Source: Candidatus Omnitrophota bacterium (lineage in GTDB: Bacteria > Omnitrophota > Gorgyraeia > Gygaellales > Profunditerraquicolaceae). From it: 64,000 nucleotides of DNA. Below, in pieces: positions 22,228-39,490 of this stretch. The notes below the pieces were generated by a model, which saw nothing but the letters and a program-made list of their open reading frames with translations, searched no databases and had not been told where the DNA came from. Made by a program: the position numbers and the translations under genes. Positions within the stretch are counted from its first letter, which is position 1; every line of letters starts with the position of its first letter. The stretch spans positions 758-64,757 of the forward strand of contig JAUYDL010000041.1 in NCBI GenBank assembly GCA_030691865.1. Direction: 5' to 3'.

Positions 22228-23349
22228 ATGTTAAAAATTTTACGCAATAAAAAAATAGCAAAAAAAATCTGGATTGGGCTGGCCGTAATTATTATTCCGG
22301 CATTTGCTCTCTGGGGTTTTGGAGGAGCAAGCCGCGACCGGCAAGAGGCCACTATAGCCGGAAAGATTTTTGGCAAGAATATCACAAATTTAGAGTTTAG
22401 AAGCTCCCTAGTCGCCGTAAGGACCATGGCGATTATGCAATTCGGCGACAAGCTCCCGGAGATCGAAAAATATTTAAATTTCCAAGGCCAGGCCTGGGAA
22501 AGATTAATCCTTTTACATGAAGCAAAAATGCGCCGAATCAACGTAAAGGATAAAGAAGTTATTGAAGAAATTCAGAATGCGCCATATTTTCAGGTTAAAA
22601 ACGGTTTTAGCAATAAAATTTATCAGGAAGCCCTGCGCTACGTCCTGCGCTTACAGGCGCGTATCTTTGAAGAACAGACACGCCAGAATTTAATCCTGGC
22701 TAAACTATACAATCAAATTACCCAAAACCTAAATTTGAGCGATGACCAGATTCATCAGGAATACCTAAAAGCTAATGAAGAATTAAATATTTATTACATT
22801 GCCAGCCTCTTTTTGGAATTTGCCAAAACTATCAAACCCAGTGAGAAAGAAATCAGCAGTTACTTTGAGCAGAATAAAGCCAGGTTTAAGGAACCGCCAA
22901 CTAAGGATAAGCCCACGCGTATCCCGGAGTTAGCAGAAATAAAGGATAAGGTTAGAGATACCTTAATCAATGAAACCGCCAAAGAAATTGCTCAGAAAAA
23001 AATAAATGAATGCGCAGAGAAATTAAAACAGATGGAATTTAATCAGGCCGCCGCCTTTTGCGGCCTAAAAAGCGCAGAAACTGATTTCTTCAAATCTAAC
23101 GGCACAATTGAAAATTTGGGGACAGCCCGGATTTTCTGGGATAGCGCTAAAAAATTAAAGGATAAAGAGCTGAGCAGTATAATCTCTAACGACCAAGGCT
23201 GCTACATCATAAAACTTAAATCCCTTAAACCTATCGATGAAAACAAATTCCTTAAAGAAAAGGAAAGTTTCTCCCAAAGATTATTATCCGCCAGGAAAAA
23301 CGAACTCTTCGCTGAATTCATTGACCAACTAAAGAAAAAGGCGCAATAA
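22228..23349 (+). CDS. periplasmic peptidyl-prolyl isomerase / chaperone, PpiD-SurA-like (N-terminal TM, C-terminal parvulin)
   Basis: N-terminal membrane anchor, SurA_N-like region and a C-terminal parvulin-like segment. It is the only plus-strand gene. Confidence 0.6.
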   Translation: MLKILRNKKIAKKIWIGLAVIIIPAFALWGFGGASRDRQEATIAGKIFGKNITNLEFRSSLVAVRTMAIMQFGDKLPEIEKYLNFQGQAWERLILLHEAKMRRINVKDKEVIEEIQNAPYFQVKNGFSNKIYQEALRYVLRLQARIFEEQTRQNLILAKLYNQITQNLNLSDDQIHQEYLKANEELNIYYIASLFLEFAKTIKPSEKEISSYFEQNKARFKEPPTKDKPTRIPELAEIKDKVRDTLINETAKEIAQKKINECAEKLKQMEFNQAAAFCGLKSAETDFFKSNGTIENLGTARIFWDSAKKLKDKELSSIISNDQGCYIIKLKSLKPIDENKFLKEKESFSQRLLSARKNELFAEFIDQLKKKAQ

Positions 23350-30139: not shown

Positions 30140-30346
30140 AGTTTAAGTTAACCTCCAACTTAGAGTAATCATATCTATCGCTAAATTTACAAACTCATTA
30201 TATAGGGATTAGCCCGAATTTCAAGGAGATTATTGCTGCGGAAATAAAAAGGGGCACTTTTTTTGGATGGGCCTTTATGCCGGTAGGCTAAAAGGTAGCG
30301 CCCCTTTTGTTCTAACTTTCCCCTGTCATCCTGAGGACCGAAGGAT

Positions 30347-33300
30347 CTATCCACTAAAAGCTACCTTTAGTTCCTCCCCGCTCCTCCCTGACCCCAGCAC
30401 TACCAGAATATCTTTAAGTGTCGGATCAGTTGCACAACAAGTTCCTTCCTGTATCCTTAGGATATCTGAGATACAAGAAACTATTCTTTCCATATCACTA
30501 TCAAGGGTACCTCTAAAACAGCTTGCGGCAAGATACTCTTTTAAGCGTTCTGCAGATGGGGTAATCCCCGAATTAACCAGGCGCTCTATATCCGACCACT
30601 CCTGGGTTAAGTCTACACGCCGCAAAGTACTCTGAGGCATAGTCCTGATACTTGCCTTAAGATTATCCATAGACTGAATGACGATAGGCAGGAAACGGAA
30701 ATCGATACCGCCTTTTTCACGGTCATCGCCTTGAGGCGCGACAGATATTTCCTCCTCAGGATAGAATTTTTGCTTGATCGCCTCAACCATTTTTCCATAG
30801 GGATGCGATTCTATCGAGAAACGAGATAACTCTGGACTCAAGCGGATCGCCCCGGCAGCTATTGCCTCTTCTTTTAAAGAAGCCATCCGCGACAAAAGAC
30901 TAACGGCGTCTTGAGCTTTTCCTAATCCTGCCTTGATAATTAACTCCACCGCCTCAAGTTCATCACGGATTTCACTCGCAGCCTCTACATCAACTTCATC
31001 AGTAATAACTGCCCCATTTTTAATATGCGCTATCTCGTGAGCAATAATCGTCGCCATTTCCCCCCGGCTTATTTCTCCGGCAATAAATTTTTTTACAAAC
31101 CAAATTAAGAGTTGGACGTCGGAACCATGAGTGGTTGCCACGCTTCCTAGCGAAAACTCAAAATTAAAATAAGGAGGAGAATTACTATCCAGGCCCGCTT
31201 CATGCAAAAGAGGCAGAAACATTGTCTCATATAAATTAATCCACGCCTTCTGCTGATCAAGCGGCATAAAACGACCAAGCCCGTATTGGCTTACTTTTTC
31301 AACAGACCAAACCCCCGCCTCAACCTGTTTAATAATACTTACGTCTACATCCGCCTTATGTCCTTGCGATTCTGCGTATTGATGCGCTTCATAGATTAAA
31401 CCTCTTGCCTGTTTTTGGTTATTCGGATTCTTGAGAAAATTACTGAACAATTCATAGGCAGTGGCTTCATCAAGGCCAGGAAACATCTCTTTAGCTTTTT
31501 GGCGCAGATAACTTACTTCATCCTGTTCATGTTTGATTTTTTGCTCTAATATACCTTGTTGCTGCCATTCTGAGAATTTAGCTCTAGTAATATAAACAAC
31601 ACCTCTTCTTAAACCAGCTGAAGCGTATTGCTCGCCATTTTCAGTAACAGATAAATAGGATGCAGCGATAACAATCACTTTTTGGCCGTTTATCATATAT
31701 ACATTCTGATTATCCACTGATAAATCCAAATCTTCTGCTAGGTCTGATTTAGGATTAACATTAAACGCGTCAAGACGTCTTTGTCGTTCTGCTTCCGTAA
31801 TTTTACCCTGTTTAAGCAAAATACCAAGAATACCTTCAAGAATATTGCGATTTGCCTGGGTTTCATCCCCTTTCCCAGTAGAAGAAATGGACGGAGAGTA
31901 GCTAAGCTCGTATACCTTGTTTGCTTGGTAAGCCGCCGGAGGTACAGAAGTTTGAGGAACAGCGGGAATTTGCGAAGCAGGTGTTTGAATTTGGAACGCC
32001 GGCTTCTTCGATGATGTCCGTAGCGTTGTACGAACCGACGGATCCAGCTTCTGCGCATGTTTCGGTTCATACCCGTAGTTAGGTTGGAGTTTTTCCTCTG
32101 GAGTAATGGAAATCTGGGTTGATTGCTCCAGATGCATCGTTTCTGCAATATAGTCTTGAACCCCGTTTCGGTTAGACAATCCCCCAACCTCGCCTGATGT
32201 AGCAATCATGAACTCCCATTTGTTTGCATCTGCAATCTGAACAAATGCTTCCATGGACCGGTCAATGAACTCATGCATCTTTTCGCTTGCCATGATCGAG
32301 GCAAAAGATACTGATGGATCAAAGCCGATGAGGATAAACTTACCGGGTTGAATAAGGAAAAGGGCGTTTCCAAACACTTCCCCATCTTTTACCATTTTGA
32401 CAGGAATGATGTTCTTCCGTTTAGATAAATGTGCAGGATGATCCCCAAAACACGTTCCGGAGATAACACCCTGCCAAACATCTAAAAGTGTCCGGGGAGT
32501 AAATACCAGAGAAATCATTTTCGTATTTTTCTCTTGTTGTTGAACGGTTTCAATGCTCTTAGCATTCACCTGTTTAATAAGTTTTAACTCGTCTGTTGCT
32601 TCGAGCGTCTTTTGCAGATATGCAAGATTCGGATGGGCTGAAAAATAATCCGGAAGGTGTTGGCTCACCAATTCTTCTAGCTGTTTGATAAACAAACTCA
32701 TATCAGTAACAGAAAGCGTACCACTAACAAACTGCGGAATGAGCGCATCAAGGTTGGAAAGCTTGAACACATCGCGCCATACCCCATTAAAAAGTGACGC
32801 ATCAATGGAAAGTGCGCCAGCAAGAACCTTCGTAAGGTTGTCCAGCTTTTGCTCCTCACTTAAGGTACTGGCAATAATGCCGTTTATCTTTTTCAAAAGC
32901 GCCTCTTGCCCATCAGTCCGAAGATATGGAAGTAATAATTTTATGGCGTCTGCTTTTGTTTGCGGATCAAGCAGTTGATTAATCGTATCAGCTGAAAAGA
33001 TTTTTCCAATATCTTCCAACATTGCTACATGATCAACCTGAGGCGTATCGGATTGAAGCAAAAAGTCCCCAAGAAAAGCCTGGACTTGTTGACGCAGCGT
33101 ATCAGGAATGGTAAAAAAGCTCTCCTGGATAGCAAATGGAAATGTTGCCGTACCCGATATTAAGGGAATCGTGGTCAGCTGGCGAGAAACCGTTTCCAGA
33201 ACTTGCCACCGCGGCAATGTCTGCCAGTTAGGAACACTGAATTGTTCCGCTAATTCAGTAAATGATGCGATATAATGACTATCAATAGAAGCAAGGAAAA

Positions 33301-36300
33301 TATCAAACATCTTAAAATCCTCTTCTGTCTGGGGTTGATATCCATTCACAAGTTTAGCTTGAAATTCGTTAAAACGCTTGTTTTTACTCTCAATCTCAGC
33401 CCGAATTTGTCCGATAAGTTCTTTAAGGCGATCGTCGGATACAGAGGAAGAGATACTTTCGGAAAGAAATGTCTGTACTGCAGGAACCAATAACGTTCTT
33501 CGTCGAACAGCAGTAAGCCATTGTTCTCTCGGAAGATATGAAAGCAGGGTATAGATACCAGGAGTAGGTTCCACTGTTCTGATATTGAAACCGTGAGCAT
33601 TCAAATATTCCCTCAGAATAATAATTGTTTCCGGTTTTACTTTTTCTGTAATAAAGTTAAAAAATGAAACATCCGCATCGGTAGCAATCAGTTCAAGGCC
33701 GCCTTCTGTTAGTATCCTACGGATATCAGGTACAGTTAAGTATAGTCTCCAAAATCGTTGTAAGGAAACAGGAAGACGTGAAAGAATATCCTCTGACATC
33801 GCAGTGCCAACATTTTGCCATACATTTTCAATAGCACCTAATTTGGTCTGCTTAGAAATATACGAAGTTATCAATTCATTAAATGAAATAGTTCCTTGTG
33901 AAGAAACAATGGCCGGCCGCAATACTCTTTCAATATCGGTAGTTAATAAAATTTTTGTTTGATTTTCAGGAAGCGCTAAAACATATAACCAATATATTTG
34001 CTCCTGTTGGGATCCAAATTCATTGTCTACCGCATGAATTAAATTATTTGATCCTAAAAGTTTGAATAACTCAAATAAAGGGTAGTGTAGCTTAACATAT
34101 TCGATAAATAACGCGTTGATTCTCACCTGACCATCTTTAATATAAAAATACCGCTGTAAATCTCCAACAGAAATAGCTGGTACTTGATTAAGATAATTTT
34201 TGCCCAGCGCAGTTTCAGCTAAAAGTATTTGATGCAGCGGTTGTGCTGAATCTAATAGTTCATCAATCCGTTCTGGATGGAGATTAAAAAATTCCAATAA
34301 TCGATTTTGCAGTGATCTATAAACTAACTGGTTTCCAAAATCAATAATTCTCTTTTGTGTTTGCGGATTAACTCCATGGAGTTTACTTATTTCTGTGACA
34401 CCCCTTTCAAAGGAAAGTAATGATGACTGAACGCCCCGTTGAATAGCAAGTACTATGGGATTAGTAATTTCTTCAACTTGCTCCGCATCTTGAACAACAT
34501 TTATTAGCCCCCGCCTTATAACATTGTTGATTCGTTCATTCAAAGCCAGAGCGATTATAATGGCGTAGGGATGACGAAGGAGTAATTCCCCTCTCTCTAT
34601 TAAATTTGTACGATTATCAATCCGATGATTGAAACCAGATTCAAAATTAGAAATTGTGTCTTTATCCATTCCATAACCTTCACGAATAAGTTGCGCTAAG
34701 ATATGTGCGGATCCGCTAGAAAGTACTGTTTTAATAAATTCTTGATAATTAACAAAAGCACGCCTCTCGTTATCTATATTTGCGAATTGCTTCTGCTGTC
34801 CTATTGCATCCAATATCACAAGTAAATCTTGTAATAGAGGCACTTGCGTTGAAAGCGCATCATAGGATATAAGTAGATCCCCTAGCGTATCCCTCCCTAC
34901 ACCATAGTCATATAATCGTTGTAGCAAAGATAACGCTTCCTCTTGTCCTTTTTGGAATCCTCCATGTTGGATCGTTGCGGTTAAAAAACGAAGTGCTGGA
35001 GATGGGCCCTCTTGAGTGGAACTAAAAGCAGATTCATACCGAGTAGCACGATAGCTACTATAGTAGTTTCCGAAAACATCAAAAAGAAATGGGTACTCAT
35101 GAGTAGCAGCTACGGCTTTTTGATATGTTTTTTCATCGACAGCAACGATTTCTTGAAAAAAAGGAAGGGATTGAGGTGGAAAATCATATTCTCCTACTCT
35201 GCTATTGCTCATTCCACTCATTCGTTGATCGATAATGTCCAGATCAGTTACCCGCCTTGCTGGGTTTATTGAGTAATCATGATATATTCGCTCATAATGA
35301 TTGGATGTAATATTCCCATCATAATATTTAAAAAGAATTGGTGATCCGCTTTTTTCCAAACTTCGTAATACTTGCTCAGGTTGTTTTATGCCATTTTTCC
35401 GCATAGCCCTTAGTGATCGAATTCTTGGGATAAATAATTGCACTGCATGAGATCGCAGATATGCTCGAGCAGACGCGCTCATTTTTTGCATTTGTTCTTC
35501 AGCCGCCTCTGTTGGGTGTCTATTAAGCACCCCTTGTGTGCTTAACCATTGAGTAGCATCCGTACTCATTTGTCTTAACCGATTTTCTCTACTATATTGA
35601 CTATCTCCCAACCCATAAATCGTTCTGATAGATTTTACAACGCTTGAATCAACTGAAGGTAAAGTATCCGCTATATCTGTTAACCGCTGTGTTTGTGAAG
35701 TATAACCGATAAATGGCGTTGATTCCCAAAATATCTTTAAAACGTATGACTCAATGGTGGCTTGAAGCTCCCCTGAAACAACTAATTGCGTTTCACTGAT
35801 CGCAGCATTTGCTAGTAAATGAATGCGTGTTTTTAATTGCTCAAAAAGCATTCCTTTTGGATCAGCTATGCTAAATGTACGGATCATAATATCAGTAAAT
35901 AGCGCTCGAATAGTAGGTTGCTGTTCAACCCTAAATTGTTTTTCCAATGCAATATAGTCGATAGCTAATTCAGCTATAACCTTACCTATATCACTCTTAT
36001 AAAGCCCGGCGTGTTGTATAGCGCGAATAACAGAAGAAATATCAGGAATTTGTAATAATGTATCAACAAATTTACGTAAGCCACCTTCTGTAATTGTTGG
36101 TTTTTCTGTTAGATACGAGACAAAACCATATATGAGATCATCTAAATCAATTACTGCCTGCATCTGTCGCAATGTCTCAAAAAGACGAGTGTATTCATGC
36201 AAAACCAGATCAGAGTTTTCACTTGCAAGTATTTGCATAAGCAACCGTGAAAAAGTGTAATAATTCATTAGGGATTGACTAGATTTTTTTGGATCACGAA

Positions 36301-38119
36301 GAGATGCACTAAATGAAACAAACGCCTGCCCTCCTATAAGTAAGCGTAGTTGAGCGTATTTCTCCAGGGAATTTTTTGTTTCAGACATTGCATCAATCAT
36401 ATTCATCACCAAGTCCATAGGAATATTTATTCGTAATCTACGGGCCAATTCTAAAGACTGGTCGATATATCCAATTGGATCAGGTGATGAAGTAAGGGAG
36501 TTAAAAAAATTAGGAATATGGGTAAATTTTGATTCTCCAAACAATTCTAATAACTCTGATAATTTTGCAATATAAACATATTTTTGGTCGATAGTAAGAA
36601 TCGACTCAATCGCCTTTTCCGGCCTAGAAGAACTGTAAGTACGAATGATCCTTCGTAATTTTGTAATAACTGTAAACGGATCCTCTGCGTGATCAATAAT
36701 TTCAAACATTTGTTCTTGTTTAGCAGGGGTAATTTCTAATCGTTTCATATCACGAATAAATGCATTTCGCTCAGCTGTAAAAAACAGTTTTTTGAACCAA
36801 TTTGTGGAGGGAGTTTGTGAAGAATTGGTTGGTGTTGTTGAAGTAGTTCGATTTTCTTCAATAGCTTGTTGTATTAAAGGATCTATAGCTGCTTGTTTAT
36901 CTTCCTCTACGCCTTGTGCCTCAACATGCACTATGTCGCCATTATTAACTTCTACGCTTACACCATACCCACTCCTTACCCCTGCTGGCGTACCCGGAAT
37001 AACTGACCTATTTCCTACTGCTCCCATTGGCCTAGTTAATTCCTGCGCCAATGATGTATTGTCTGGAGCTAAAACCATACCCCCTGAGAAATAACTCCTG
37101 ATCACCTGGCCATATGGTGTATAGGTGGGCTCTTGGATGTTGTATTCCCCCTTCTCAAAATTCTCCTTATAGGCATTAAAGTAGGTGTTCACTGAATAAG
37201 GGGTCTTGGTTTGAAGATTAGTCAGGTCTTTTCTGTTTATACGTCCAGAGTATTGAGTGTTTTTGTTTTGATTTCTGGCTTTAAACCACTGGGCAAGAAT
37301 TAAGGAGTAATAGACCTGTCTTAAGGGGCCGTAGCGCTTGGCGTTGTTGATTTCTTTGGTAAGTTTAGGAATGATATTTTCCCTGATAATCTGAGAAGAA
37401 TATTCGTTGAGTTGTTTTTCTCTTTCATCTTTAAAAGAGTAGGTGGCATTGCCTTTTAAATAGTCTTGTTCCAGCATTACCTTTAGCGTTGCCTTATAGA
37501 CATAAGCTGAATCTGTTGATTCACGGATGATGATTTCATCCGGAACGATCCAGGGGCGGGTTAGAGTAGGGATGGTTACGTTTTGATTTCCATAGAGCTC
37601 GCCTGCTTTTTGGTAGAGCTTATCCCAATACTCTTTACCTTCAAGGGTTTGAGGATTAGTCACATTGGCAGTATCTTTTTTTAGCTGCAGGTCTGCTTCC
37701 AGAAGAATCTTGCCTACTTCCGTCTGAGCTAAGAGCGGATCAATAATATCATTGGGTGAGTCAGGACGCAAGTTTACCCAGAAGGTGTCATTGGGCAAAG
37801 CAATACCCACAAAGAAATAATTTAGTAAATCTTTGGTGATAGATTCAACTTCAGGGACAGTCCCCTTCGGGGACAGTCCCTTAAACTGGTCGCCTTTATC
37901 TAAGAGAAGCTTAAAATTATTATTTAATCCATCGTAGGATATGTATCTTAAATGCAGGGGACGAAACTTATCCGGGGTAAAAGCATTATGTAAAGATGCG
38001 AAGTGGCCGGCGATATTTAGCTCAACAGCAGCAACCTGGGCAAAGCCCGTCTGCTGGACAACTAACAGGATACACAAAAATATAGCAATAATTTTTAAGG
38101 TCTTCGATTTTTTCATCAA
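30347..38119 (-). CDS. giant secreted protein (2590 aa) with an N-terminal signal peptide, an S/T-rich linker, a very long alpha-helical region of about 1700 aa and a C-terminal region carrying an HExxH zincin-like motif
   Basis: Uninterrupted 7.8-kb ORF. Signal peptide MMKKSKTLKIIAIFLCILLVVQQTGFAQ. Linker TTSTTPTNSSQTPSTN. IIAHEIAHIKNG sits at about 31027..31041. C-terminal Cys pair EGTCCATDP. Confidence 0.7.
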   Translation of the reverse strand: MMKKSKTLKIIAIFLCILLVVQQTGFAQVAAVELNIAGHFASLHNAFTPDKFRPLHLRYISYDGLNNNFKLLLDKGDQFKGLSPKGTVPEVESITKDLLNYFFVGIALPNDTFWVNLRPDSPNDIIDPLLAQTEVGKILLEADLQLKKDTANVTNPQTLEGKEYWDKLYQKAGELYGNQNVTIPTLTRPWIVPDEIIIRESTDSAYVYKATLKVMLEQDYLKGNATYSFKDEREKQLNEYSSQIIRENIIPKLTKEINNAKRYGPLRQVYYSLILAQWFKARNQNKNTQYSGRINRKDLTNLQTKTPYSVNTYFNAYKENFEKGEYNIQEPTYTPYGQVIRSYFSGGMVLAPDNTSLAQELTRPMGAVGNRSVIPGTPAGVRSGYGVSVEVNNGDIVHVEAQGVEEDKQAAIDPLIQQAIEENRTTSTTPTNSSQTPSTNWFKKLFFTAERNAFIRDMKRLEITPAKQEQMFEIIDHAEDPFTVITKLRRIIRTYSSSRPEKAIESILTIDQKYVYIAKLSELLELFGESKFTHIPNFFNSLTSSPDPIGYIDQSLELARRLRINIPMDLVMNMIDAMSETKNSLEKYAQLRLLIGGQAFVSFSASLRDPKKSSQSLMNYYTFSRLLMQILASENSDLVLHEYTRLFETLRQMQAVIDLDDLIYGFVSYLTEKPTITEGGLRKFVDTLLQIPDISSVIRAIQHAGLYKSDIGKVIAELAIDYIALEKQFRVEQQPTIRALFTDIMIRTFSIADPKGMLFEQLKTRIHLLANAAISETQLVVSGELQATIESYVLKIFWESTPFIGYTSQTQRLTDIADTLPSVDSSVVKSIRTIYGLGDSQYSRENRLRQMSTDATQWLSTQGVLNRHPTEAAEEQMQKMSASARAYLRSHAVQLFIPRIRSLRAMRKNGIKQPEQVLRSLEKSGSPILFKYYDGNITSNHYERIYHDYSINPARRVTDLDIIDQRMSGMSNSRVGEYDFPPQSLPFFQEIVAVDEKTYQKAVAATHEYPFLFDVFGNYYSSYRATRYESAFSSTQEGPSPALRFLTATIQHGGFQKGQEEALSLLQRLYDYGVGRDTLGDLLISYDALSTQVPLLQDLLVILDAIGQQKQFANIDNERRAFVNYQEFIKTVLSSGSAHILAQLIREGYGMDKDTISNFESGFNHRIDNRTNLIERGELLLRHPYAIIIALALNERINNVIRRGLINVVQDAEQVEEITNPIVLAIQRGVQSSLLSFERGVTEISKLHGVNPQTQKRIIDFGNQLVYRSLQNRLLEFFNLHPERIDELLDSAQPLHQILLAETALGKNYLNQVPAISVGDLQRYFYIKDGQVRINALFIEYVKLHYPLFELFKLLGSNNLIHAVDNEFGSQQEQIYWLYVLALPENQTKILLTTDIERVLRPAIVSSQGTISFNELITSYISKQTKLGAIENVWQNVGTAMSEDILSRLPVSLQRFWRLYLTVPDIRRILTEGGLELIATDADVSFFNFITEKVKPETIIILREYLNAHGFNIRTVEPTPGIYTLLSYLPREQWLTAVRRRTLLVPAVQTFLSESISSSVSDDRLKELIGQIRAEIESKNKRFNEFQAKLVNGYQPQTEEDFKMFDIFLASIDSHYIASFTELAEQFSVPNWQTLPRWQVLETVSRQLTTIPLISGTATFPFAIQESFFTIPDTLRQQVQAFLGDFLLQSDTPQVDHVAMLEDIGKIFSADTINQLLDPQTKADAIKLLLPYLRTDGQEALLKKINGIIASTLSEEQKLDNLTKVLAGALSIDASLFNGVWRDVFKLSNLDALIPQFVSGTLSVTDMSLFIKQLEELVSQHLPDYFSAHPNLAYLQKTLEATDELKLIKQVNAKSIETVQQQEKNTKMISLVFTPRTLLDVWQGVISGTCFGDHPAHLSKRKNIIPVKMVKDGEVFGNALFLIQPGKFILIGFDPSVSFASIMASEKMHEFIDRSMEAFVQIADANKWEFMIATSGEVGGLSNRNGVQDYIAETMHLEQSTQISITPEEKLQPNYGYEPKHAQKLDPSVRTTLRTSSKKPAFQIQTPASQIPAVPQTSVPPAAYQANKVYELSYSPSISSTGKGDETQANRNILEGILGILLKQGKITEAERQRRLDAFNVNPKSDLAEDLDLSVDNQNVYMINGQKVIVIAASYLSVTENGEQYASAGLRRGVVYITRAKFSEWQQQGILEQKIKHEQDEVSYLRQKAKEMFPGLDEATAYELFSNFLKNPNNQKQARGLIYEAHQYAESQGHKADVDVSIIKQVEAGVWSVEKVSQYGLGRFMPLDQQKAWINLYETMFLPLLHEAGLDSNSPPYFNFEFSLGSVATTHGSDVQLLIWFVKKFIAGEISRGEMATIIAHEIAHIKNGAVITDEVDVEAASEIRDELEAVELIIKAGLGKAQDAVSLLSRMASLKEEAIAAGAIRLSPELSRFSIESHPYGKMVEAIKQKFYPEEEISVAPQGDDREKGGIDFRFLPIVIQSMDNLKASIRTMPQSTLRRVDLTQEWSDIERLVNSGITPSAERLKEYLAASCFRGTLDSDMERIVSCISDILRIQEGTCCATDPTLKDILVVLGSGRSGEELKVAFSG

Positions 38120-38232
38120 TTGCCTACCGGCTCTTTAACTACTATAAGTATGATATAATAGGTAAGAAAAAACAAGGGTAAAACAGGGTAAAAAGAAAGG
38201 GTTTTCAGTAACAAAAGGGGATGCAACAAAAA

Positions 38233-38270
38233 GGGGACGTTGCCCTTCCGTCTTGAAGGGAAACGTCCCC
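38233..38270 (-). terminator. rho-independent terminator for the 38526..38765 gene, also the 5' part of the duplicated module before the giant-gene promoter
   Basis: ggggacgttgccc...gggaaacgtcccc stem followed by a U5 run on the minus-strand RNA. The TTTTACCC x2 repeats at 38175..38194 follow it. Confidence 0.6.
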
Positions 38271-38525
38271 TTTTCTACATCCTCTTTAAAGTATATGGAT
38301 TTCTTAATTCAGATTGGACAAATAATCAATCAGAATGGACAATTATAAAGGGAAAAAACACGAAGCTTTCCCGAATTTGTAGCAAGTATTCTCTGCAACT
38401 AACTAAAGAACAAGTAGGTTTCCCAAGAAATCTGATCTTAAGACCGTATGCAAAGGGAAAGCTTCAGTTCTTTCCTTTTAGCTACAGACTTGGGAAAGAA
38501 CTAAAAACACTTGTTGGCTGGTAAT

Positions 38526-38765
38526 CTATAACTTATGGTTTTCATGTACCCTGACCGACCTGATTCTACCTAATTGCGAGCAAAGGTCAAAAACCAAAGT
38601 AGGATCTTCAGTAAGCATATTTACTTGATAATTACAGCTTTCTGCCTGCTTCTGGCAGTCTGTAACAGTCAGATCACTGCCAAATTCTGCCAAGGCGTTC
38701 TTGATGATTTTCGGCGAGCTGTCTTTAGCATGTAAAACAAACTCCAGTACGTATTTTGTAATCAT
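38526..38765 (-). CDS. YbeD/UPF0250 (DUF493)-like small protein
   Basis: 79 aa. Y.LEFVLHAKD...NYQVNML...LGRIRSVRV resembles the YbeD pattern. Confidence 0.45.
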   Translation of the reverse strand: MITKYVLEFVLHAKDSSPKIIKNALAEFGSDLTVTDCQKQAESCNYQVNMLTEDPTLVFDLCSQLGRIRSVRVHENHKL

Positions 38766-39490
38766 TTAAGCATAACCACAGAAATTAATCTCCCCGCAAC
38801 TTGGGCCTCCTTGCGAAATGAAAAAAAGTTATCATCAGAAAAAGTGCAAAGCGCGGGATCGAAAATATTTTCTTTTTTTACTCCACAGTCAACCAGCTGT
38901 CTTTGATTGATCAGCGCGATATCCATAAAAACCCGGCCGTCTTTCTTCAGCAACCCAAAGCCAAAATTACTTTTAAAATCCTTCTCTACTTCAAAACAAC
39001 AGGAACGGATAGACGGGCCAAAACCAACAAATACATCTTTGGGTTGGCTACCAAATTTATTTTGCATGCCCTTAAGCCCCTCCTGCGAGATATTCTGTTC
39101 GGTACTGCGCCAACCAGCATGTAAAATGGCAATCGCCGGCCGCTTGGGATCATAAATAAAAACTGACAGGCAATCGGCAGTTAATATCGCAACGGGCACA
39201 GCTCTCTTATCAGTGATAAAACCATCTATATCGGCAAAAGAACTATCATAATCTAACGCCCCTCTACCCTTATTTTCTTCAGTTACATATTCAATATTTT
39301 TCCCATGTACCTGCTTAGCACAAATCAGACTGCGATAATCAATTCCTATGCTGCCAAGGAATTTTTTACGGTTCTCCAAAGAATTTTTGGTATCTCCGTA
39401 ACATAAAGACATGTTACCATCCTGCCTTCTGCTAAAACAGGCAACTGCCGAATTTATTGCAAATGTTTGTAATGGATTATAAGGCTGCAT
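38762..39490 (-). CDS. pgeF: peptidoglycan editing factor PgeF / YfiH (LACC1-type) family
   Basis: VPVAILTADCLSVFIYDP ... AILHAGWRS. Confidence 0.85.
   Translation of the reverse strand: MQPYNPLQTFAINSAVACFSRRQDGNMSLCYGDTKNSLENRKKFLGSIGIDYRSLICAKQVHGKNIEYVTEENKGRGALDYDSSFADIDGFITDKRAVPVAILTADCLSVFIYDPKRPAIAILHAGWRSTEQNISQEGLKGMQNKFGSQPKDVFVGFGPSIRSCCFEVEKDFKSNFGFGLLKKDGRVFMDIALINQRQLVDCGVKKENIFDPALCTFSDDNFFSFRKEAQVAGRLISVVMLK

Follow-up and report, generated by a model that had tools for sequence, protein, structure and literature searches.

Within the window analysed here, a 64,000-nucleotide stretch of contig JAUYDL010000041.1 from a Candidatus Omnitrophota bacterium (assembly GCA_030691865.1, positions 758 to 64,757 of the forward strand), the minus strand carries a 7.8-kb open reading frame (ORF 30347..38119) whose translation runs without interruption over 2590 codons counted from a TTG, as a preliminary description of this DNA had stated. 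The start is probably the ATG at codon 2 (38116), favoured because homologues begin with MKKSK, which would give a product of 2,589 amino acids (aa); residues are numbered here from the TTG. The encoded protein very probably belongs to a large Omnitrophota-restricted family in which a Sec signal peptide is followed by a conserved N-terminal domain, a variable cargo and a conserved C-terminal domain. As judged from sequence, the two end domains, to which the preliminary description drew no attention, are the conserved, family-defining parts and the main feature of the 2590-aa protein. The gene and its segments, in N- to C-terminal order, are as follows.

30347–38119, minus strand: complete ORF, 2590 codons counted from TTG, with the stop codon at 30347–30349
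38039–38116, minus strand: Sec-type signal peptide, residues 2–27, predicted cleavage GFA/Q between A27 and Q28
37070–38038, minus strand: N-terminal domain, residues ~28–350, with the motifs FWVNLRPD, IPTLTRPWIVP, KATLKVMLEQDYL, LRQVYYSLILAQWFK and RSYFSGG
36785–37069, minus strand: linker, residues ~351–445, poorly conserved and ending in the Thr/Ser/Pro-rich TTSTTPTNSSQTPSTN (residues 425–440)
32633–36784, minus strand: orphan middle, residues ~446–1829, matched by P0001 only among the retrieved proteins (71–84% identity)
31970–32632, minus strand: orphan module A, residues 1830–2050, with GTCFG (invariant Cys1890), GFDPS.S and GGLSNR (alignment A6)
31289–31927, minus strand: orphan module B, residues ~2065–2277, with PSISSTG.GDE.QANRNIL, GLRRG.VYITR and IKHEQDEV (alignment A7)
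30749–31288, minus strand: module C, residues ~2278–2457, a putative compact M48-like gluzincin domain
31025–31039, minus strand: predicted zinc-binding/catalytic motif HEIAH, residues 2361–2365, the sole HExxH in the protein
30971–30973, minus strand: Glu2383, predicted third zinc ligand, aligned with the Glu of the M48 'ExxAD'
30350–30712, minus strand: C-terminal domain, residues 2470–2590, opening with GGIDFRxLPIV

The family is delineated by the distribution of homologues along the protein. A search of 5.8 billion proteins retrieved 620 homologues, the best 120 of which were used for mapping; these are 1,400–4,500 aa long and, where a source is named, come mostly from Omnitrophota. All 120 cover residues 1–350 (50–80% identity) and 119 cover the last ~120 residues; between them, coverage collapses across residues 351–2450, and the middle is matched by P0001 alone. 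When one genome per GTDB species was scanned, 419 family loci were found, nearly all in Omnitrophota metagenome-assembled genomes (MAGs), many of which carry at least two copies; the few loci with non-Omnitrophota labels may be mis-binned. The shortest family ORFs in 79 fetched loci measure ~800 aa and the longest more than 3,700 aa (the protein matches reach 4,471 aa); in all of these loci the N-terminal domain lies at residues ~30–345 and the C-terminal domain makes up the final ~120 residues, with a cargo of roughly 0.3–4 thousand aa (kaa) between the ends. The 2590-aa protein itself has the QxGFA/Q signal, the N-terminal domain, the terminal C-terminal domain and a variable middle with linkers, and its signal peptide and Omnitrophota homologues agree with the earlier view of it as a giant exported Omnitrophota protein. 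A literature search found no description of a family bookended in this manner, which is apparently undescribed.

Within-genome paralogues have N-terminal domains that are 58–72% identical, and each has a closer orthologue elsewhere, so they represent old lineages, not recent copies. Concerted evolution of the paralogues was considered and ruled out, likeness within genomes being no higher than between genomes with the exception of one MAG; there the copies are closely related, and two lie in tandem (L023, 644–9970 and 9992–15910) with N-terminal domains that are 90% identical. Carriage by phages or mobile elements was also ruled out, only 2 loci being present in 2.9 million viral contigs. Frameshift-split family genes were observed in L001, L005, L037, L057 and L062 and may be pseudogenes or sequencing errors.

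Both end domains are sharply conserved. The ~320-aa N-terminal domain has ~100 invariant positions among 21 sequences (alignment A1), and its AlphaFold2 model, of moderate to good confidence, is of mixed alpha/beta type, with a predicted local distance difference test score (pLDDT) of 74, mostly above 80 in the core (residues 50–345), and a predicted template modelling score (pTM) of 0.71; pLDDT drops below 50 at residues 347–385, past the domain. The preliminary description had a ~400-aa N-terminal domain ending in a Thr/Ser linker: the linker stands where it was placed, at 425–440, but the conserved domain already ends at ~347. The ~120-aa C-terminal domain has an invariant GGID.R and a nearly invariant L.PI, is modelled with confidence as seven helices (pLDDT 86, pTM 0.76), and is preceded by a short, poorly conserved stretch ahead of GGIDF that is Pro/Ser/Thr-rich in many homologues. 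The protein had been said to end at EGTCCATDP, which is incorrect, since this stretch (residues 2558–2566), whose Cys pair is only partly conserved, is followed by 24 further residues.

For either end domain there is no match in Pfam, in NCBIfam or among solved structures; when the whole protein and both ends were scanned against Pfam, NCBIfam, PADLOC and PHROGs, a weak M48 match was the sole result. Known C-terminal sorting or secretion domains (autotransporter barrel, type IX C-terminal domain, LPxTG) were not encountered in the C-terminal domain, which has an all-helical model, no LPxTG and no Pfam or NCBIfam match. The possibility that it is a second, degenerate M48-like module, raised by a forced MAFFT alignment, was ruled out by an hhalign probability of 0.7%.

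A divergent second version of the family was seen in P0137, P0145 and P0159, and a looser tail variant in P0171. Its N-terminal domain opens with LPxPGxMVxLSP..LKGI, and its tail reads GGID[FL]..NMN...G.GI.F.LDP......GF.PVI..I.P...L..FLG; GGID[FL] opens both tail types, and Pfam and NCBIfam contain neither. Shared by the two subfamilies of the N-terminal domain are, among other conserved residues, WVNLxP, WIxP, LKVxLExDYL, LRQxY and RxYxxGG, and the divergent subfamily also begins with signal peptides, of other sequence.

A further feature lies inside the coding sequence of the N-terminal domain.

37849–37880: two GGGACWGTCCC palindromes, 16 nt apart, in frame as K-GLSP-K-GTVP

This pair is an insertion relative to some homologues, and the window holds 2 perfect copies of the 11-nt sequence (both at 37849–37880) against 0.26 expected. 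Within family genes such pairs occur in frame as KGLSPKGTVP or, in another frame, RDSPLRGQSL; they were also found in L006, L014, L015, L018, L019, L020, L023, L034, L038, L042 and L058, and further in L060, L066, L071 and L072. Time and again they occupy the same N-terminal-domain loops (after DKGD, EQDYL and WFKAR), and they are also found in the C-terminal domain; the density of the palindrome is 4.7-fold higher in family ORFs than in the remainder of the fetched loci, and the pairs resemble the in-frame palindromic insertion elements of Rickettsia.

The signal peptide consists of an n-region (KKSKTLK), a 12-aa h-region and the sequence QQTGFA/QV, and QxGFAQ is invariant in 21 of the 21 aligned family members, in line with the Sec signal called earlier. 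The n-region has four lysines and a net charge of about +4, the flank past the helix is neutral or acidic, and a hydrophobicity scan of the whole 2590-aa protein detected no second segment of transmembrane strength. By the positive-inside rule, and given that the cleavage site is invariant, export of the predicted product is the favoured topology.

In contrast with the ends, the segments between them have very few relatives. The middle (~1,390 aa) has no Pfam match and shows a helix-like hydrophobic periodicity by a crude measure, so that it is possibly mostly helical. It is not of low complexity, as had been supposed, its entropy (3.8–4.1 bits per 100 aa) being equal to that of the globular ends; the absence of internal repeats noted from the letters was confirmed. 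A word-indexed search of residues 1830–2465 and 440–1829 gave 3 and 0 matches, respectively, and missed P0001, P0002 and P0003, which are 70–75% identical there, so that its negatives are unreliable. An exhaustive HMMER search of 1.84 billion representatives recovered only 56 proteins for residues 1830–2465, and these split the region into three modules, A, B and C, each of which recurs independently within other large proteins. Module A has ~30 representatives, all within other large proteins, and module B ~12; both also occur inside ~6-kaa proteins without the N-terminal domain of the family, and profiles of the two found nothing significant in the Protein Data Bank (PDB). In module B, residues 2195–2202 (31514–31537) carry an invariant His in IKHEQDEV, with GLRRG.VYITR before it; this layout recalls a strand-helix metal site with HExxE in place of HExxH, and has no PDB or Pfam match.

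Module C, carried by seven representatives and by P0034, contains the motif that had been noticed at the outset as a minimal zincin, and this assignment is supported by the homologues of the module. Among nine aligned module C sequences (alignment A3), L2338, A2360, H2365 and E2383 are invariant, HExxH is intact in eight, and PF01435 is matched by eight, with P0034 passing the Pfam threshold (25.8 bits versus 20.3). The module C profile matches BepA (6ait, E 1.3e-5) and a Geobacter M48 peptidase (3c37, E 7.4e-5) in the PDB, as well as HtpX and, weakly, the minigluzincin proabylysin; a plain sequence search of residues 1869–2590 against the PDB gave no match. The profile alignment spans HExxH to the Glu of BepA NEQEAD, opposite which Glu2383 is placed; the spacing of the predicted third ligand, a point on which the preliminary description had left the choice between gluzincin and metzincin, is of the gluzincin (M48 'ExxAD') type. 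The 2590-aa protein nevertheless scores below the PF01435 threshold (14.9 bits over its full length and 17.5 bits when only its C-terminal 321 aa are scored, versus 20.3), the Asp of 'ExxAD' is not retained (EIRDE here, with A-D replaced by D-E), and a ~45-residue spacer between HExxH and Glu, present in P0034 and P0171, is deleted. For these reasons module C is called M48-like, a probable compact gluzincin and not a certified M48 member. It is also accessory, not a defining head, since P0001, the closest homologue (75% identical over residues 1–2269), has ~585 unrelated residues where module C would be; an HExxH of any kind lies within 260 residues of the C-terminal domain in only 11 of 166 family members.

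P0001 (2,998 aa) is a syntenic orthologue encoded with the same gene order on an independent metagenome contig (locus L080, 4903–13899), and a Nei-Gojobori comparison with its gene gave ratios of nonsynonymous to synonymous substitution rates (dN/dS) of 0.10 for the N-terminal domain, 0.28–0.31 for the middle, 0.18 for modules A and B and 0.14 for the C-terminal domain; the value for the linker (0.36) comes from a poor alignment with saturated dS. These ratios indicate that purifying selection acts on every segment, which effectively excludes a pseudogene or a spurious ORF. In the same comparison dS is higher in the ends (0.72–0.79) than in the middle cargo (0.42–0.53). This could reflect different histories of ends and cargo, through recombination or paralogue gene conversion, with which it is compatible without being proof.

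The signals around the gene delimit it on both sides.

38155–38182, minus strand: promoter-like sigma-70 match TTTACC-16-TATTAT, 36 nt before the ATG, a pattern match only
38220–38278, minus strand: terminator-like hairpin and U-run (-34.3 kcal/mol, z -7.2), placed after the upstream small ORF and ahead of the promoter
30238–30312, minus strand: terminator-like hairpin and U-run (-25.9 kcal/mol, z -4.0), just past the stop codon
30224–30197, minus strand: promoter-like site of cutA, match 11/12

With these signals the gene is an insulated, monocistronic unit, as anticipated from its terminator-flanked promoter cassette. Downstream are cutA (CutA1), a ccdA-type DsbD_TM gene and a gene for a TlpA-like thioredoxin-fold protein, a domain scan of the neighbours bearing out the names first given to them; upstream are genes for a PgeF/YfiH-type laccase-domain protein, RmuC and a PP-loop protein. 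The neighbours at 26.6–30.1 kb and 38.8–42.0 kb and most window ORFs longer than 400 aa are housekeeping genes. Between pgeF and ORF 30347..38119 lies a small conserved ORF of ~79 aa (MITKYVLEFVLHAKDSSPKII...RSVRVHENHKL; 38534–38773, minus strand), which is present in all syntenic loci, even those without a family gene, and is therefore part of the housekeeping backbone.

The resulting order, rmuC-pgeF-small ORF-family gene-cutA-ccdA-tlpA, is shared by family members in eight other genomes or contigs (L001, L003, L004, L010, L013, L017, L035 and L080). Their intact products range from 1,170 to 2,998 aa, the L001 copy being frameshift-split, and their middles are unrelated to that of the 2590-aa protein or mosaic among themselves. 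In L056, L059 and L063, pgeF, the small ORF, cutA, ccdA and tlpA are contiguous and the family gene lies elsewhere; as these genes adjoin one another in distant genomes, the family gene is best seen as an insertion into a housekeeping backbone. The comparison suggests that gene content has been replaced while the ends and the locus position stayed fixed. A functional link of the family gene to cutA, ccdA and tlpA is unlikely, because in related genomes those genes adjoin pgeF with no family gene between them.

No secretion system, receptor or immunity gene is present within ~4 kb on either side, nor within ~4 genes on each side of related loci. A conserved partner gene beside family members was sought and not found, the recurrent neighbours being rsmI, glmS, gyrA and other housekeeping genes. 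About 7 kb downstream, at 22228–23349, lies a gene for a SurA_N/Rotamase_2 peptidyl-prolyl isomerase, the one plus-strand gene of any size that was seen in the window, and no secretion genes were seen beside it; domains of this type are listed for the conserved genes around the secretion loci of giant genes (West-Roberts et al. 2023, bioRxiv 10.1101/2023.11.21.568195).

The cargo of other members, surveyed in the best 120 of the 620 matches, is enzymatically diverse (S-adenosylmethionine (SAM) methyltransferases, metallophosphoesterases, GNAT, HATPase, GGDEF, radical SAM, ABC1 kinase together with M48, NUDIX, HD, HAD, HEAT repeats and many others), and several cargoes keep their catalytic motifs, namely three CxxxCxxC in one protein and GDxxDRG and GNHE in phosphoesterases.

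Taken together, these observations are best explained by a modular Omnitrophota family whose ends form a chassis for export, anchoring or delivery and whose cargo is exchangeable, an explanation that we consider probable, if only modestly so. How such a chassis would deliver its cargo is put forward more tentatively. Machinery common to the cell's family members would recognise both conserved ends; once the protein had been exported by Sec and its signal removed, the chassis would keep the cargo at the surface or transfer it to another cell, that of a host or prey. The cargo would be the variable working part, for cell-cell interaction, and would be exchanged between genomes by within-gene recombination at a fixed locus. 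In the 2590-aa protein, module C might then act as a zinc endopeptidase on envelope proteins, host proteins or its own carrier. Bolder still, and possible but doubtful, is the proposal that the N- and C-terminal domains constitute a new, phylum-specific export or delivery chassis with which Omnitrophota nanobacteria place enzymes of cytoplasmic type onto or inside the cells of a host or prey, with cargo swapped by recombination at fixed loci from the module pool of the proteins of at least 10 kaa. Under that same doubtful proposal, radical SAM enzymes, kinases, methyltransferases and phosphoesterases would be examples of such cargo, and the 2590-aa protein would carry a minimal M48 protease.

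Several points weigh against the chassis explanation. Neither end domain resembles a known secretion, anchoring or translocation module, so that the case for a chassis is one of architecture, and the housekeeping neighbourhood gives no hint of where the 2590-aa protein ends up. Radical SAM, kinase and methyltransferase cargo needs cytoplasmic cofactors, which fits delivery and fits a wrong topology prediction equally well: as ATP, SAM, GTP and Fe-S clusters are not expected outside the cytoplasm, either the cargo acts inside a host or prey cell or the predicted topology is wrong. As to its protease part, the sub-threshold Pfam score and the lost Asp of module C count in the same direction.

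Among the alternatives, the one that fares best, although unlikely, is the picture originally drawn of a single integrated machine, in which a long helical stalk projects a metallopeptidase head to adhere to or attack other cells. The signal peptide, the lack of a transmembrane segment, the helix-like periodicity of the middle and the M48-like HExxH module fit this picture, and predators and parasites with giant surface proteins are reported among Omnitrophota. The protease module is, however, not at the tip, since the C-terminal domain follows it; P0001 keeps the middle and swaps out the protease module, and the rarity of HExxH near the C-terminal domain across the family argues in the same sense. 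No adhesin-type domains were detected in a Pfam scan of the whole protein. The stalk-and-head picture was accordingly not upheld, the M48-like module being exchangeable and replaced in the closest homologue. An adhesion or attack role as such is plausible, on lifestyle grounds only.

Somewhat less probable is a membrane-tethered cytoplasmic scaffold, in which the N-terminal helix would stay uncleaved and serve as anchor, while most of the protein, including cargo that depends on cofactors, would remain on the cytoplasmic side. Such an arrangement would account for cargo with intact catalytic motifs that needs ATP, SAM, GTP or Fe-S clusters in other members, and 46% of Omnitrophota proteins of at least 10 kaa are reported to have transmembrane segments only, with a predicted cytoplasmic bulk (bioRxiv 10.64898/2026.06.07.730766). 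The charge distribution speaks against it, as an n-region of ~+4 with a neutral or acidic flank places the N-terminus inside and the remainder outside; so do the invariance of the canonical small-x-small cleavage site (G-F-A/Q) and the retention of a signal peptide in the divergent subfamily despite its different sequence.

Conserved ends around a highly variable, recombining cargo and several paralogues per genome would also be expected of an effector resembling polymorphic toxins, with which related cells would compete and which would be made of conserved trafficking ends and a toxic variable part. This is improbable to a slightly greater degree than the scaffold: the variable part is internal and not a C-terminal tip, no conserved small immunity gene follows, its place being taken by cutA or other housekeeping genes, a Pfam scan found no Rhs, RHS-repeat, filamentous haemagglutinin, PAAR or similar domains, and PADLOC was negative. 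There is still less in favour of a BepA/HtpX-like envelope quality-control protease working with cutA, ccdA and tlpA. BepA and HtpX are indeed the best structural-sequence matches of module C and envelope redox genes are neighbours, but no family gene separates pgeF and the small ORF from cutA-ccdA-tlpA in L056, L059 and L063, other cargo occupies the same locus elsewhere (e.g., a methyltransferase in L003/P0011), and a promoter-like site and terminator-like hairpins of its own set the gene apart. Finally, that ORF 30347..38119 is a pseudogene, an assembly chimera or a spurious long ORF can practically be dismissed: frameshift-split copies do occur in the few other MAGs listed above, but here the frame is unbroken, dN/dS against an independent syntenic metagenome orthologue is well under 1 in all segments, and both family ends are there in the correct order.

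The chassis explanation, in which conserved ends bracket exchangeable cargo, has a parallel in the MARTX toxins, where conserved N- and C-terminal regions surround variable effector modules that are exchanged by recombination. The logic of bracketed cargo is the same; no similarity of sequence or fold was detected. The 2590-aa protein has neither GGxGxD nor tandem repeats of the glycine-rich RTX type, a Pfam scan did not find the MARTX cysteine protease domain, and a Sec signal stands here in contrast with the C-terminal type I secretion signal of MARTX, no type I secretion genes being seen adjacent. Polymorphic toxins (Zhang et al. 2012, PMC3482391) likewise combine conserved trafficking parts with recombining variable modules and have multiple paralogues; compared with them, the family has an internal variable part and lacks immunity genes and known trafficking domains. 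With the M48 peptidases (BepA, HtpX, Ste24; PF01435) and proabylysin, module C shares HExxH and a downstream Glu in an 'ExxAD'-type helix. It differs from M48 in that the ~45-residue spacer, transmembrane helices and a tetratricopeptide repeat (TPR) domain are absent and in that it is embedded as one module within a 2.6-kaa protein, and thereby adds a minimal gluzincin variant.

The closest comparison is with the giant proteins of the same phylum. Omnitrophota are widespread, ultra-small bacteria thought to be predators or parasites, of which giant proteins are the most conspicuous and least understood trait; these have been described as 'Archaeovorins' (West-Roberts et al. 2023, bioRxiv 10.1101/2023.11.21.568195) and sorted into classes including 'SP-only' and 'multi-enzyme' (Nielsen & Lui 2026, bioRxiv 10.64898/2026.06.07.730766). 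The family shares with them an N-terminal signal peptide and the same cargo repertoire (methyltransferase, HATPase, GNAT, HAD, radical SAM, NUDIX, GGDEF and HEAT), but its members measure 0.8–4.5 kaa as opposed to more than 10 and up to 147 kaa, lack transmembrane helices and are defined by end domains that those papers leave unmentioned. Archaeovorin genes exceed 90 kb and encode many transmembrane helices, whereas the 2590-aa protein has a single N-terminal hydrophobic segment; the former lie between a type II/IV secretion-like locus upstream and pilZ/carbohydrate transport genes downstream, whereas the family is scattered among housekeeping genes. If the ends do form a chassis, the end domains would be direct targets for antibodies, pull-downs and structural work, and would provide a sequence signature with which to list the exported 'effectorome' of any Omnitrophota genome; the replacement of cargo at a fixed locus is in turn a testable model of modular-protein diversification. 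In contrast with the proteins of more than 10–30 kaa covered by the published catalogues, which are almost intractable, the bookended family is a smaller and well-delimited handle, with hundreds of members, two sharply conserved ends and cargo whose domains belong to the pool that the giants also use.

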